DNA of 42,466 nt, from assembly GCA_964361825.1 (NCBI GenBank), contig CAYICB010000007.1, forward strand, positions 1-42,466, in the 5' to 3' direction. Below the pieces are notes generated by a model. That model did no database searches. It was not told the DNA's origin and saw only the letters and a list, made by a program, of their open reading frames with translations. A program made the translations under genes and the position numbers. This stretch comes from an uncultured Candidatus Saccharibacteria bacterium (lineage in GTDB: Bacteria > Patescibacteriota > Minisyncoccia > Phycocordibacterales > JACOZG01). Positions 14,644-17,247 of this stretch are shown here, piece by piece. Within the stretch, counting starts at the first letter, position 1. Each line of letters begins with the position of its first letter.

Positions 14644-16365
14644 ATGATGGTATTGGTAGCAGAGAAGGAACGAAGTGCTGATACTGTCGTTCCCGTTCCT
14701 AATGTGGTGGAGATCGTTGACTACCGCGTGGTGGAAACCGAAATTCATTTGACGGGTGGCCCGCGGGTGCAAACAATCAAGAATTGGATCACCCGCGTGG
14801 GCCGGGCCGAAGCTGAAGCGATGCGAATGCTCAAGGAGTATTTACGGATTCAGAAAGTCGAGATTACAGATGAAGATGGCGAGGTCGAGGAAAAAATCGT
14901 TCGCGCCGAACTTTATCTTCCCTGTGTTGATCCGGCAAAACTGGTTGCGGCTCGTGAATTGATTAAGCCCGATAGAGTTAAAACGACTAACGATGAGCTT
15001 GGTGGGAATAAAGAATTGAGCCCAGCCGCGCTGGCTCGCCCTAAGTATCTCAATTCGTATCATTTGGTTGAGATTGTTGAAAAAACAGGCGAGGTGCCAG
15101 TCTTGCGTTTCGTTTTACTTGAGACATACAGTTTCGAGGTTGAGATCAAGCGTGGGCCGAAAAAGGGTGAGAAGAAAACAGTGAAAACCTCGGTTCACAT
15201 TGAGGTGACCAAGGCACTCCAGCGACTCATTACGAGTTGGCTGGCGCCACCACTTTTCAAGACCTTGCCGGCCAAGTTTAAGGATGGTGCGGCGCAAGAA
15301 GTGGCCCAATCGCTCGCTTCTCACTTGGGAATCCAAGAGAAGGCCGACCCGACCCGTCCCGATATTGGTTTCCCTTCCTTTGATCAAGCAGATCCGCGAC
15401 TTTGCGATCAGTCTAAACCACTTCAGCATCAGCCCCTGCGTTTTACTGGTAGTGGTGATGTGACGGTCTTCCGCCGGATTTGGAATGATCCGCACACGCA
15501 AGAGCGTTTACCCGGTCTCTGGGCCGCTATCCCGCTCGACCATGTTGAGACTTGGTGGCACAAGAAATTGGCGGAATTCACCCCACTTCCCATTTGGAGT
15601 GGCGCGAGTTTAACCACCCCCAAGGGCAAGCCCAAGAACCTAATGCTCGTGCCACTCTCTATCCGTCACGGTTGGGAAATCAAACGATTTTGTGAACTGT
15701 CGTCTGATTTAGAGAATCTTGATCATGGTCGTTTGGTGCGGACTCTAAGCGGTAAGGAATTTAAGCCCTGTTGGTCCTTGTTGGTTCGGCGGGGTGATAG
15801 GTTCTTTATCCAACTTGTGCTCAAACGCGAGGTGGAAATTCCGTCTCGGCCCAACACTTGCGGAGTGCATATCGCCTTGACCAAAGAACCGCATGGTTGG
15901 AGTATCAAGCTCCACTGGGCTTGCGATGATCAAACTGGAGAAATTCTGCTTGAGTATCCGGGTCAAGTGTGGAGACGAAATCGCGACAAGGAAGGCAACG
16001 CCTTATCTGGTGGGAGCCTTCATCCGATGTTCGACCATCGGGAAAAGCGTCGGGATAATGCTTGCGTGGCGGCGCTTAAACTGGTGGCCATCGCCAAGCG
16101 CCTTAATGCCAATCTCTATCTGGAGGATGTAAAAGGTAATAAGAAGCGCGGTCAAGGCCAACCGGGAGGAACCTTGGCGACAAGGTTTAACCACGCTTCC
16201 ATTGCTGAAATCGTTCAACAAAAGGCGGTTGATGGTCGCGTTTGCGTCGAACTGGTGCCGGGTTTCAAGTTGTTGGAAACGGGCATTAGAGACTTGTCGC
16301 CTTCAGAGAAGGCTGGGGTCATTGCCAGTCTGGGTCTAGAAAGGAGAAAGAAAAAGGAGGAATAA
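14644..16365 (+). CDS. Compact type V (Cas12/TnpB-like) CRISPR effector with degenerate RuvC, probably nuclease-inactive
   Basis: WSLLVRRGDRFFIQLVLKREVE followed by CGVHIA (RuvC-I, His409 for Asp); LYLED (RuvC-II, E494); FNHASIAEIVQQKAVDGRVCVELVP (TnpB-like helix-strand); terminal helix KAGVIASLGL; adjacent to cas1, array and anti-repeat. Confidence 0.75.
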   Translation: MMVLVAEKERSADTVVPVPNVVEIVDYRVVETEIHLTGGPRVQTIKNWITRVGRAEAEAMRMLKEYLRIQKVEITDEDGEVEEKIVRAELYLPCVDPAKLVAARELIKPDRVKTTNDELGGNKELSPAALARPKYLNSYHLVEIVEKTGEVPVLRFVLLETYSFEVEIKRGPKKGEKKTVKTSVHIEVTKALQRLITSWLAPPLFKTLPAKFKDGAAQEVAQSLASHLGIQEKADPTRPDIGFPSFDQADPRLCDQSKPLQHQPLRFTGSGDVTVFRRIWNDPHTQERLPGLWAAIPLDHVETWWHKKLAEFTPLPIWSGASLTTPKGKPKNLMLVPLSIRHGWEIKRFCELSSDLENLDHGRLVRTLSGKEFKPCWSLLVRRGDRFFIQLVLKREVEIPSRPNTCGVHIALTKEPHGWSIKLHWACDDQTGEILLEYPGQVWRRNRDKEGNALSGGSLHPMFDHREKRRDNACVAALKLVAIAKRLNANLYLEDVKGNKKRGQGQPGGTLATRFNHASIAEIVQQKAVDGRVCVELVPGFKLLETGIRDLSPSEKAGVIASLGLERRKKKEE

Positions 16366-16380: not shown

Positions 16381-16417
16381 GTCCTCCGAGGCAAGCAATT
16401 GCTTCGGGGGACTTTTT
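16381..16417 (+). terminator. Intrinsic terminator between effector and cas1
   Basis: 14-bp stem gtcctccgaggcaa/ttgcttcgggggac (two GU pairs), GCAA loop, then T5. Confidence 0.85.
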
Positions 16418-16435
16418 GTGCTTGATTTTGGGTTA

Positions 16436-17191
16436 ATGGAAAAAATGAAGGAAGTTTACCATGATCCAGTTTTGGTAAGGGCACAAATTGTGTTTAGTGA
16501 TAGCGCGGCTGGTTTAGAAACTGCCAAAGAAATCATTAAAACTAAGATAAAAAACTCCCGACTTTTGCTTACTGTTTATGCTCGCTCGCCGCGGCGCACT
16601 GGTTCTGATCAGGCTAGTATTATTCAAACTATCGTAGGAGAAATGTGGCGCTGGGAGCAATTAGTTGTGGGGGCCGAGACTAAAGCCAGAACTTTCCAAC
16701 TTGAGGCTCTGGCCGCCAAGGATTATTGGGAGGCGGTACGAGTAATTTGTTATCAGGTCGAAGATTGGCATCGCGTGTATCCTCATGCCACCGATGTTTT
16801 AAGTATCCTGTTAAACACCGGTTATGTGGCTTTGGGGCGGAAAGTTAAAAAGATTTTATTAGAGTCTGGTTTGCTCTTAGAATTTGGCATTTTGCACGGT
16901 AAGAATTCTCGGTTGCCCTTGATTTACGATGTGATGGAAATCTTTCGTCAACCGGCGGTAGATGCGGTGATTATGCCGATTTTTTCGCGTCGACCTAAAA
17001 GTGGGGTAGAGAAGGGGAGCAGAGAATTTAGAAAAGCTATTGCTCTGATGATTGAGCGTTGGCAAGAAAGGTTTTTATACAATGGACGGAAAGAAACCAT
17101 GGAAAGGATTTTGTTTTTAGAAATTTGCCAACTCAAGCGGGCGATTGTAGAAGAAAGACCGTGGAAGCCAATTCTAACATCTGTAAGTTAA
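16436..17191 (+). CDS. cas1: Cas1 integrase homolog, helical catalytic domain only (~250 aa)
   Basis: AKEIIKTKIKNS; QLEALAAKDYW (E); DVLSILLNTGY; EFGILH (H); LIYDVMEIFR (D/E); spacing matches the Cas1 E-H-D triad. Confidence 0.88.
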   Translation: MEKMKEVYHDPVLVRAQIVFSDSAAGLETAKEIIKTKIKNSRLLLTVYARSPRRTGSDQASIIQTIVGEMWRWEQLVVGAETKARTFQLEALAAKDYWEAVRVICYQVEDWHRVYPHATDVLSILLNTGYVALGRKVKKILLESGLLLEFGILHGKNSRLPLIYDVMEIFRQPAVDAVIMPIFSRRPKSGVEKGSREFRKAIALMIERWQERFLYNGRKETMERILFLEICQLKRAIVEERPWKPILTSVS

Positions 17192-17197
17192 AGCAAG

Positions 17198-17222
17198 AAA
17201 AAAGCCACCCATTAAGAGTGGC
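17198..17222 (-). terminator. Terminator of the minus-strand CRISPR transcript
   Basis: Minus strand GCCACUC-uuaau-GGGUGGC-UUUUUU; the stem is complete (with a GU pair) only on this strand. Confidence 0.75.
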
Positions 17223-17247
17223 GATTTGTTCAAAAAAGAGCTTTGTG

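Follow-up and report, generated by a model that had tools for sequence, protein, structure and literature searches.

We found that an open reading frame in the window (the whole 42,466-nucleotide stretch of DNA that was analysed) encodes the catalytic domain of Cas1 alone, with its catalytic residues intact, an assignment that we consider confirmed. The protein belongs to a real and old family, which we call mini-Cas1, and is not the product of a local deletion. On balance we favour, by a modest margin over doubt, the reading that it is a working member of this monophyletic family, a mini-integrase that needs no Cas2 and supplies a nuclease-dead CRISPR system with samples of self DNA.

Cas1 is the hallmark of CRISPR adaptation. 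To our knowledge, all described integrases keep both Cas1 domains and nearly all need Cas2. A literature search that covered main texts outside subscription journals returned no report of a Cas1 without its N-terminal domain, and we regard the mini-Cas1 family as previously undescribed.

Results

A Cas1 gene reduced to its catalytic domain

The mini-cas1 frame (Table 1) encodes 257 amino acids when read from a GTG and 251 from the ATG at 16436, which is the probable start. Its product matches the Pfam profile Cas_Cas1 (PF01867; E 5.6e-21, 75.4 bits against a cut-off of 22.3) and TIGR00287 (8.7e-26, 90.8 bits against a cut-off of 71.7), and is also recognised by the PADLOC Cas1 models. Because the two matches begin at profile positions 81 (81-253 of 283, Pfam) and 85 (85-324 of 327, TIGR00287), the N-terminal domain, which fills the first ~80 profile positions, has no counterpart in the protein, in agreement with an earlier reading of this DNA from sequence only that had described the N-terminal beta-domain as absent. 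An HMM of that domain, built from the N-terminal regions of 29 full-length Cas1 proteins (positive control 7.8e-20), likewise gave no match to the protein (P0001). There is also no space for such a domain upstream, since the effector gene stops at 16365 and the hairpin that follows occupies the gap, much as the sequence-only reading had argued from the terminator seen there.

Table 1. Features of the mini-cas1 locus, with positions counted in the window.
Feature	Position	Strand	Basis or description
Effector, 573 aa, Cas12f/TnpB-like	14644..16365	+	phmmer link to P0005, Atlas look-alikes
Terminator-like hairpin between effector and cas1	16381..16412	+	14-pair stem, 4-nt loop, then TTTTTG
mini-cas1 (Cas1 catalytic alpha-helical domain alone)	16418..17191	+	Family matches, 11 invariant residues
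Hairpin 3' of cas1, reads as a minus-strand terminator	17204..17222	-	7-pair stem, then TTTTTTCTTG
CRISPR array, 6 repeats of 38 nt, 5 spacers	17233..17615		Array structure
Spacers 1-5	17271-17300, 17339-17369, 17408-17439, 17478-17508, 17547-17577		Lengths 30, 31, 32, 31, 31 nt
Conserved non-coding stretch beyond the last repeat	17616..17947		Aligns across six genomes of the host's bacterial family

Residues E96, H160, D171 and E174, which we take to be the catalytic (metal-binding) positions of Cas1, sit in the segments LEALAAKDYW, GILHG and YDVMEIFRQ, and these align with the solved Cas1 structure 4n06 from Archaeoglobus fulgidus; the E-H-D triad had thus been correctly read as intact. An AlphaFold2 model of the protein (pLDDT 92.9, pTM 0.90) is helical throughout except for one beta hairpin. 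The chain stops short of the C-terminal W-x-H tail that most of its relatives carry, and is one of three among 29 members that have no such tail at all. This missing tail, the RuvC-degraded effector of Cas12f/TnpB type and the spacers copied from self are three points that the sequence-only reading did not contain.

Other adaptation parts were sought in the source genome, which comprises 704 kb and is estimated to be 100% complete. Its only Cas1 match is mini-cas1 itself. Searches for Cas2 with PF09827 and PF09707 returned 0 matches, and the six-frame translation contained no match to the N-domain HMM at E <= 10, so that the absence of Cas2 noted earlier extends to the whole genome and no N-domain is supplied in trans. 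One borderline match to the Cas4 family (C1:48840-49199) is distant from the CRISPR locus, where mini-cas1 is the sole adaptation gene. Weak PF09827 matches in sister genomes were rejected as Cas2; they fall in multi-copy frames of ~190-225 amino acids away from the CRISPR loci and reach only from profile position 2 to positions 35-46 of 74. Neither the source genome nor G022 holds one.

An old family with an invariant active site

A protein search of 1.84 billion representatives with mini-Cas1 yielded 1015 matches. Among them, 136 rows had a near-complete Cas1 catalytic domain, and 43 of these 136 had fewer than 45 residues before it. In a tree of 131 rows, the source protein fell in a single clade of 33 (SH-aLRT 97), of which 31 are short forms of 213-286 amino acids without the N-domain; the N-domain HMM matched one of the 33 clade rows versus 96 of 118 other rows. 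Although the 29 aligned members share only 24-44% identity, 11 residues are invariant in all 29 (K43, E96, D126, Y136, L139, G157, H160, D171, E174, R177 and D182), and the active site is thus under selection. A short conserved leader, x-I-R-A-Q-x-x-Y, further marks the family. Between cas1 genes dN was 0.46-0.61 with dS saturated, and a dN/dS ratio is therefore not computable; word-based homolog searches recovered barely any relatives (2 matches each).

Related loci from the candidate phyla radiation (CPR) repeat the layout of a Cas12f-like effector, mini-cas1, a short array and a conserved non-coding stretch, and no cas2 was seen in them. Mini-cas1 or its remains occur in 7 of 31 genomes of the host's bacterial family, none of which has another Cas1, and the effector occurs in 6 of the 31, all within those 7. 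The two genes are also paired in the distant loci L042 (a Candidatus Uhrbacteria MAG), L043 and L111/L113, and arrays adjoin mini-cas1 in L042, L043, L109, L111, L112 and L115. The sequence-only reading had anticipated that full-length cas1 and cas2 in homologous loci would speak for a recent deletion or misassembly here; instead, these loci carry mini-cas1 of the same length and no further Cas1. Since they do, and since the catalytic residues are invariant, the first of the three options that it had left standing (a minimal integrase, a repurposed partner of the effector or a relic) is now favoured, and the third holds for some of the sister genomes.

A Cas12f-like effector that has lost its nuclease residues

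The effector (P0002) has no match in Pfam or NCBIfam. By phmmer it resembles P0005 (E 4.3e-30, 25% identity over 96% of the query), which matches the PADLOC Cas12f model PDLC01689 at 3.1e-68; the same model recognises the effectors of L043 (1.7e-49), L042 (1.8e-43), G022 (2.5e-10) and G018 (9.3e-06). P0002 itself has no PDLC01689 match and is tied to Cas12f only through P0005 and through ESM Atlas features and structure, which lead to TnpB/Cas12f1-like clusters.

In all seven aligned effectors the column of the RuvC-I aspartate is occupied by H, T, S, F or L, with H in the source protein, and in alignments with solved TnpB and Cas12f proteins the aspartate of the G-I/V-D-L-G motif stands opposite H, T or S. 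The zinc ribbon/TNB domain is absent from the four effectors of the host's bacterial family, and the last RuvC segment (RuvC-III) is missing in the family as well. The nuclease residues were lost long ago, and the effectors have this loss in common. Without the RuvC-I aspartate, the ribbon and RuvC-III, the effector probably binds DNA and leaves it uncut.

Arrays filled with copies of host genes

Spacer lengths in the array are 30-32 nt, as the sequence-only reading had counted them, and across mini-cas1 loci repeats range from 35 to 38 nt and spacers from 29 to 35 nt; nothing that could act as a ruler for 30-35-nt spacers was identified. In the repeat nearest cas1, the 5' half has degenerated. 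Each of spacers 2-5 is matched perfectly and over its full length at another place in the source genome; spacer 1 has no match there. Including this genome (G000, 4 of 5), 17 of 21 spacers across six genomes match self (G019, 3/4; G008, 3/3; G022, 3/3; G496, 4/4; G497, 0/2), and each genome has spacers different from those of the others. The spacers thus appear, from these matches, to have been taken from each host's own genome.

The matched sites are chromosomal and mostly within housekeeping genes, on either strand, and include those for an amidase/GatA-like protein, enolase, seryl- and glutamyl-tRNA synthetases, ClpB, RNase R, a penicillin-binding protein (PBP) and PilM. Contigs bearing the targets and contigs bearing the locus were of similar depth in groundwater runs. 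Across 15 protospacers, no base reached more than 7 of 15 at any position within 6 nt, and hence no PAM was seen, nor was there a strand bias (relative to the ORF that each site overlaps, 8 are sense and 7 antisense). A T at -4 with a pyrimidine at -3, present at 7 of 15 sites on the opposite strand, was picked out by eye, post hoc and uncorrected, and we do not claim it.

With at most 5 spacers, the arrays are tiny, and acquisition must therefore be rare at best. No base differences were found at the locus in contigs of four groundwater runs. The sole hint of array variation is one 98-nt groundwater contig that skips spacers 3-4, a weak observation that may have arisen through misassembly at the 38-nt repeat.

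Beyond the array, the conserved non-coding stretch contains a hairpin at ~17670-17715 and a second hairpin, both with compensatory changes. Its plus strand has two sites that resemble terminators (17627-17642 and 17736-17760), and its minus strand has one that resembles a promoter (17947-17919). The stretch could serve as a leader, as a scaffold or tracrRNA-like RNA, or as both. Rfam gave no credible family for it, the single match being a chance microRNA hit below threshold, and a search of the stretch for a clear anti-repeat found none; a candidate with 8 of 9 pairs by eye in the source genome failed in G019 and was dropped.

Discussion

A model for Cas2-independent sampling of self DNA

In the reading that we favour, the N-terminal beta domain would have been lost once in the mini-Cas1 family, and purifying selection would since then have kept the gene, in CPR bacteria, as the one adaptation component of a small system resembling type V-F. 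Two copies of the protein would pair through the short conserved leader and the first helix, and E96, H160 and D171 (E174) would catalyse the two transesterifications that insert 30-35-bp fragments beside a repeat. Insertion would proceed without Cas2 and without PAM selection, with fragments drawn mainly from the cell's own chromosome. We propose that such self-derived spacers would be tolerated because the effector, which has no RuvC-I aspartate, zinc ribbon or RuvC-III segment, could bind its targets but not cut them. The integrase activity itself is a prediction, for which the evidence is indirect and consists of self-derived spacers, peculiar to each genome, where mini-cas1 is the sole Cas1 gene.

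Pairing is predicted in silico. The predicted homodimer scored an ipSAE of 0.45 versus 0.00 for the best control, a model score that may borrow from solved Cas1 dimers, with a partner pLDDT of at least 86 and runs agreeing in at least 61% of contacts; 20 of 30 solved homodimers attained this level, as did 1 of 23 single chains. The modelled interface comprises residues 13-17, 20-21, 24 and 153-165. Canonical Cas1 relies on the N-domain for much of its dimer contact, which counts against a dimer that lacks it.

Alternative explanations

An alternative that we hold to be improbable is that the family was once functional and that the source gene, or the whole locus, is now drifting to loss with old spacers in its array, the gene being intact only because little time has passed. 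The locus is indeed patchy and decaying in the host's bacterial family, where cas1 is truncated or disrupted at 4 of 7 loci, at one of them because the contig ends there. G018 and G012 retain only C-terminal cas1 fragments of 117 and 111 amino acids; the G022 gene has lost residues 134-203, and with them H160, D171 and E174 of the catalytic centre; the effector has an in-frame TAG stop in G008 and is a fragment in G012; and G001, a complete genome of the same genus, has neither gene. The missing tail of the source protein and its unmatched spacer 1 point the same way. Against this, the source gene keeps all 11 invariant residues in an open frame of 257 codons, a 99%-identical copy on another contig differs by 2 substitutions only, four of the five spacers are still perfect matches, and in G019 both genes are intact, with the C-terminal tail in place. 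Perfect self-matches are nonetheless no proof of present activity, because the three G022 spacers match their own genome at 100% although its cas1 has lost the catalytic centre.

Rather less probable still is that mini-Cas1 integrates only together with an obligate partner, a protein that replaces both the N-domain and Cas2 and sets the 30-35-nt length, for which the Cas12f-like effector or a host DNA-bending factor would be candidates. Such a partner would account for the uniform spacer length of 29-35 nt without Cas2 and, were it the effector, for its invariable company with cas1 or its remains in the host's bacterial family and for the recurrence of the pair in distant loci; however, in L109 mini-cas1 lies between two arrays with no effector match in the 5 kb downstream, and G018 and G022 retain the effector without a working cas1.

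That mini-Cas1 is not an integrase and acts as a DNase, or in a structural role, for the RuvC-dead effector at guide-matched sites would agree with Cas1 proteins being metal-dependent nucleases and with catalytic residues conserved while the RuvC site degraded, but we consider it very unlikely, because 17 of 21 spacers correspond to chromosomal genes of the host, including those for tRNA synthetases, enolase and ClpB, where guided cutting should be lethal, and because spacers that differ in every genome imply that something inserts them.

Significance

If active, a conserved family of Cas1 proteins consisting of the catalytic domain only would be the smallest natural spacer integrase, and it would make one ask how spacer length is fixed in the absence of a Cas1-Cas2 ruler. 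A long-dead Cas12f derivative beside arrays made almost wholly of host-gene copies points to CRISPR kept for a use other than defence in very small genomes, and the locus offers a concrete, testable case for the old question whether cells ever turn CRISPR adaptation on their own DNA. A bolder reading, to which we give limited credence, is that of a self-sampling CRISPR, in which a PAM-free, Cas2-free mini-Cas1 would write host DNA into the array and the dead effector would bind the host genes so recorded. Were it true, these CPR bacteria would possess a heritable, re-programmable means of tuning or marking their own genes, a natural, self-updating form of gene repression by a dead effector (CRISPRi) in place of immunity. 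An integrase of ~250 amino acids and an RNA-guided DNA binder of ~575 would also have practical appeal because of their very small size.

Comparison with known systems

With canonical Cas1 (PF01867, TIGR00287; 4n06), mini-Cas1 shares the alpha-helical catalytic domain, the E/H/D(E) motifs and an adjoining CRISPR array; it differs in having no N-terminal beta domain (~80 profile positions), a genome without Cas2, and the leader and, mostly, the tail that mark its own family. Types V-F1 to V-F3 carry cas1-cas2-cas4 adaptation genes, whereas the system described here has mini-cas1 alone, and its effector, unlike Cas12f of type V-F, has no intact RuvC triad and no zinc ribbon/TNB.

Cas1 of types V-C and V-D keeps both domains and is found with short repeats, 17-19-bp spacers and Cas12c or Cas12d as the effector; a Cas1 without Cas2 in a type V locus is what they have in common with ours. 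A Cas1-only 'mini-integrase' of these types, in which Cas1 alone can integrate, was reportedly described by Wright et al. in 2019 (Molecular Cell). The longer repeats and spacers measured here and the Cas12f-like effector set the present loci apart.

TldRs use a single fixed guide RNA, and we know of no array or Cas1 associated with them, in contrast to the multi-spacer array and adaptation gene found here. Described as TnpB-like nuclease-dead repressors in the part of the report available to us (bioRxiv 10.1101/2023.11.30.569447), they would share with our effector a TnpB-derived, RuvC-inactive, RNA-guided mode of binding DNA at host genes, which is here predicted. Exapted CRISPR-Cas12f homologs are reported to drive RNA-guided transcription (PMC13472631), and the sections of that text consulted mention a nuclease-dead, CRISPR-associated Cas12f cluster that resembles ours in its C-terminally truncated Cas12f with part of the RuvC site gone, its adjoining array and its guides matching the host genome. 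The example given there comes from Chitinophagaceae and has a promoter as its target, whereas our hosts are CPR bacteria with targets mostly inside genes on either strand, and its text does not mention Cas1, whereas mini-cas1 is present here.

A fragmented CasY locus with self-targeting spacers in Roizmanbacteria, for which a regulatory role has been suggested, is likewise a CPR system with Cas1 and no Cas2, many self-targeting spacers and a disabled effector, as far as the portion of that account consulted goes (PMC6509639). Its Cas12d was recently frameshifted, its 5'-TA/TG PAM is kept and its Cas1 is not described as truncated in that portion; in the mini-cas1 loci, by comparison, no PAM was seen and the effectors have in common that their nuclease residues disappeared long ago.

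A conserved Cas1 variant without the N-terminal domain

P0001, the 257-aa product of the cas1 gene in the window, represents a new, conserved Cas1 variant (mini-Cas1). The Pfam Cas_Cas1 profile matches it at E 5.6e-21 over profile positions 81-253 of 283 only, TIGR00287 matches with 90.8 bits (cut-off 71.7) over positions 85-324 of 327, and its residue 26 aligns with residue 95 of the solved Cas1 4n06, confirming the absence of the N-terminal domain reported by the sequence-only reading. The catalytic triad is likewise intact, as had been claimed: E96, H160, D171 and E174, whose motifs we take to be the Cas1 metal site, are all invariant in an alignment of 29 family members (24-44% identity to P0001), together with K43, D126, Y136, L139, G157, R177 and D182. 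An AlphaFold2 model from this 29-row alignment (pLDDT 92.9, pTM 0.90) is helical with one beta hairpin. P0001 terminates ahead of a W-x-H tail that a pattern search finds in 22 of the 29 members and that, by eye, is wholly missing in just three (P0001, P0029 and P0031).

Searching 1.84 billion representative sequences with HMMER, we obtained 1015 hits, the best of which are nearly all 240-280 aa long and begin to match inside their first 30 residues. Among 136 rows with a near-complete Cas1 catalytic domain, 43 had fewer than 45 residues ahead of this domain, 38 appeared full-length and 55 were fusions, mostly of ~750 aa. A quick IQ-TREE run on 131 rows, which is not a thorough tree search and left out five rows with a catalytic domain cut at the N-terminus (P0016, P0017, P0030, P0032 and P0125), placed 31 short rows in one clade of 33 (SH-aLRT 97), supplying the same-length homologues that the sequence-only reading had proposed to seek; the remaining 7 short rows, dispersed among fusion proteins, are probably gene fragments. 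An N-domain HMM (29 N-terminal regions) matched 1 of the 33 clade rows versus 96 of 118 others, the exception being the 307-aa, long-branched P0055 (E 6.8e-4). For the proposed check on selection, the cas1 genes of the window's genome and two family genomes (G019 and G008) were compared: dN is 0.46-0.61, and dS is saturated. Taken together, the clade, the HMM counts, the invariant residues and the dN values indicate that the N-domain was lost once, and that the remainder and its active site were kept across deep divergence.

The window's genome (estimated 100% complete) holds a single Cas1 match, no Cas2 by PF09827 or PF09707, and nothing at E <= 10 in a six-frame search with the N-domain HMM (positive control 7.8e-20), so that both the claimed lack of Cas2 and the suggested search in trans ended without a missing partner. 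Partial, weak PF09827 matches occur in 12 of 31 genomes of the same GTDB family, none in the window's genome or G022, spanning profile positions 2 to 35-46 of 74 only and lying in multi-copy frames of ~190-225 aa distant from CRISPR loci. A borderline Cas4-family (PD-(D/E)XK) match (22.4 bits, 273-aa frame) is also distant from the CRISPR locus.

Formation of a mini-Cas1 homodimer is supported by a complex predictor, whose score may lean on solved Cas1 dimers: ipSAE was 0.45 versus 0.00 for the best control, with partner pLDDT of at least 86 and at least 61% of contacts common between runs, a mark that 20 of 30 solved homodimers attained, as against 1 of 23 single chains. According to the prediction, the interface comprises the conserved short leader with the first helix (residues 13-24), together with loop 153-165.

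Locus organization and related loci

The window corresponds to contig C7 of the 704-kb genome (18 contigs, CPR-like gene content) and carries the locus between murC/DUF4015 and an MntA-HepT pair (NCBIfam E 1.3e-22 and 2.3e-26). A terminator-like hairpin upstream of cas1 and the tight 30-32-nt spacers described from sequence were both recovered (Table). The non-coding stretch after the array is conserved, with counterparts in five related loci (L010, L011, L012, L005 and L013), and contains two hairpins that each show compensatory changes, one of them GGGG-Y-GGTGAG ... CTCACC-R-CCCC; the stretch has no family in Rfam and may be tracrRNA-like, a leader or both. The order murC, DUF4015, effector, cas1, VirD4 recurs in G018 and G012, where the VirD4/TraD-like ATPase is 72-77% identical. 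The two-ORF GT4 arrangement further downstream may stem from a frameshift or represent a split gene.

Table. Coordinates of the locus, its spacer targets and related features (window coordinates unless a contig or locus is named; C1, C5 and C10 are contigs of the window's genome, G000)
Feature	Coordinates	Strand	Remarks
Effector ORF (P0002)	14644-16365	+	573 aa
Terminator-like hairpin	16381-16412	+	14 pairs; between effector and mini-cas1
mini-cas1 ORF (P0001)	16418-17191	+	257 aa
Second hairpin	17204-17222		3' of mini-cas1
CRISPR array	17233-17615		6 x 38-nt repeats; spacers 30, 31, 32, 31, 31 nt
Spacers 2-5	17339-17577		self-matching
Spacer 2-5 junction, run X1	17369/17509		139 nt omitted
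Non-coding DNA	17616-17947		~330 nt, after last repeat
MntA (nucleotidyltransferase antitoxin) and HepT (RNase toxin)	17948-18816		immediately past CRISPR locus
VirD4/TraD-like coupling ATPase	18816-20417		adjoins CRISPR locus; counterparts L012:6114-7694, L005:1-572
GT4 glycosyltransferase halves	20421-21484		separate overlapping ORFs: Glyco_transf_4 (20421-20954), Glycos_transf_1 (20942-21484)
Spacer targets	C1:11266-11296, C1:12057-12087, C1:13970-14000, C1:96539-96570, C5:48647-48677, C10:29007-29037
Secreted-protein genes	C1:8601-14072		four in tandem
Cas4-family match	C1:48840-49199		borderline
Weak PF09827 matches	G030:C1:89903-90016, G008:C7:23046-23159, G018:C1:8770-8889		examples
LexA gene	L042:2893-3510, L043:2635-3252		~1 kb from effector
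Y-family polymerase gene	L042:9674-10879		after array
Inverted arrays	L109:36-345, L109:1215-1608		flank cas1

Mini-cas1 or its remains occur in 7 of the 31 family genomes, none of which has another Cas1. Relatives of the effector are found in 6 of the 31, all within these seven; the seventh mini-cas1 locus is situated at the end of its contig. Across 401 genomes sampled from the whole class, the remaining Cas1 matches are in open frames of 319-362 aa, two fragments excepted. A one-genome-per-species scan added two loci, in a Candidatus Uhrbacteria MAG (L042) and a Patescibacteria MAG (L043). In both, mini-cas1 is followed by an array and preceded by the effector, which is encoded on the other strand; their LexA and polymerase neighbours may be plain shared synteny. 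Metagenomes yielded five more (L109, identical to L110; L111/L113, 99% identical across their overlap; L112; L115; L125), none matching the N-domain. The effector lies immediately upstream of cas1 in L111/L113; in L109, the 5 kb downstream yielded no effector. In place of the full-length cas1 and cas2 that the sequence-only reading had considered for homologous loci, we thus found mini-cas1, and no cas2 was seen in either the MAG or the metagenome loci.

A Cas12f-like effector

The link of the effector P0002 to Cas12f is indirect, as it has no Pfam or NCBIfam match. It is related to P0005 (E 4.3e-30), and the PADLOC Cas12f model PDLC01689 matches P0005 (3.1e-68), L042 (1.8e-43), L043 (1.7e-49) and, weakly, the G022 and G018 effectors. 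A profile of the longer effectors matched solved TnpB/Cas12f chains (9nzp, 1.5e-05; also the 8j1j, 7wju and 9nzo groups), and in the Atlas, P0002 most resembles TnpB/Cas12f1-like clusters (score 0.95, TM 0.45-0.54). The aspartate of the TnpB/Cas12f G-I/V-D-L-G motif aligns with H, T or S in the effector family (H in P0002, segment CGVHIAL), and in all four effectors of the window's GTDB family the CxxC...CxxC ribbon is absent, as is the segment expected to carry the last RuvC aspartate. Based on these alignments, we read the effector as a probable natural nuclease-dead Cas12f derivative.

Spacers copy the host genome

Each of spacers 2-5 of the window is matched perfectly, and over its full length, elsewhere in the same genome. 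Spacer 2 matches two tandem secreted-protein paralogues, 72-75 nt into the reading frame, and, at 28 of 31 positions, a third paralogue with a VWA domain. The four tandem genes, one with a VWA domain, have a common N-terminal signal segment followed by an FEAHV-I/L-NVTA motif, and the stretch coding for this motif is the exact site of the match. The target of spacer 3 is a PKD-domain surface protein; that of spacer 4 is the 3' end of an Amidase-family, GatA-like gene, and that of spacer 5 a site adjoining an ABC1-kinase gene.

Such matches were found in five of six genomes, for 17 of 21 spacers: 4/5 in the window's genome, 3/4 in G019, 3/3 in G008, 3/3 in G022 (all on the locus's own 296-kb contig), 4/4 in the Uhrbacteria genome G496 and 0/2 in the further genome G497. 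The spacer sets differ in each genome, with targets including enolase, seryl- and glutamyl-tRNA synthetases, ClpB, RNase R, a penicillin-binding protein, PilM, a beta-CASP RNase and ABC transporter parts. Fifteen target sites showed no bias towards either strand (8 sense, 7 antisense), nor any PAM or flanking consensus over 12 flanking positions (no base above 7/15). Four groundwater runs contained the locus and target contigs at 99-100% identity and similar depth. In run X1, a 98-nt contig links spacer 2 to spacer 5, omitting spacers 3-4, and is either a population array variant or a product of assembly across the 38-nt repeat.

A model for mini-Cas1 function

Most likely, mini-Cas1 is a putative integrase that works independently of Cas2 and serves a nuclease-dead Cas12f-like system in which host-derived spacers are stored, which favors the minimal integrase among the three options of the sequence-only reading. 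Host-derived fragments of 29-35 nt have been inserted separately in each lineage, with the mini form, the sole Cas1 in these genomes, as the candidate enzyme. Self-derived spacers would be tolerated because the effector could not cut; a cell would not survive guided cutting of its tRNA-synthetase or enolase genes. The self-directed guides could possibly serve gene regulation or be a neutral by-product of unselective uptake. Strong repression seems unlikely, since many targets are essential genes, hit mid-gene and on either strand.

Counting against this model, and in line with the relic option for some family genomes, the system is decaying in the window's GTDB family. Cas1 is down to 117 aa in G018 and 111 aa in G012, that of G022 lacks residues 134-203 (H160, D171 and E174 among them), and the G008 effector has an in-frame TAG; mini-cas1 and effector are both missing from G001, which is complete and belongs to the same genus. 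The absent W-x-H tail of P0001 and the small size of the arrays, which hold at most 5 spacers, also weigh against the model. Despite its broken cas1, G022 retains three spacers with 100% self-matches, implying that perfect matches outlast Cas1 and are no proof of current activity.

Comparison with published systems

A full-text search of the main text of openly accessible papers turned up no Cas1 family that lacks the N-domain; the V-C mini-integrase is reportedly the subject of an earlier paper. In Roizmanbacteria, self-targeting spacers are described alongside a freshly fragmented CasY (PMC6509639). A CRISPR-associated nuclease-dead Cas12f cluster with C-terminal truncations has also been described (PMC13472631); the text of that paper makes no mention of Cas1, whereas the effector in our genome sits beside mini-cas1.
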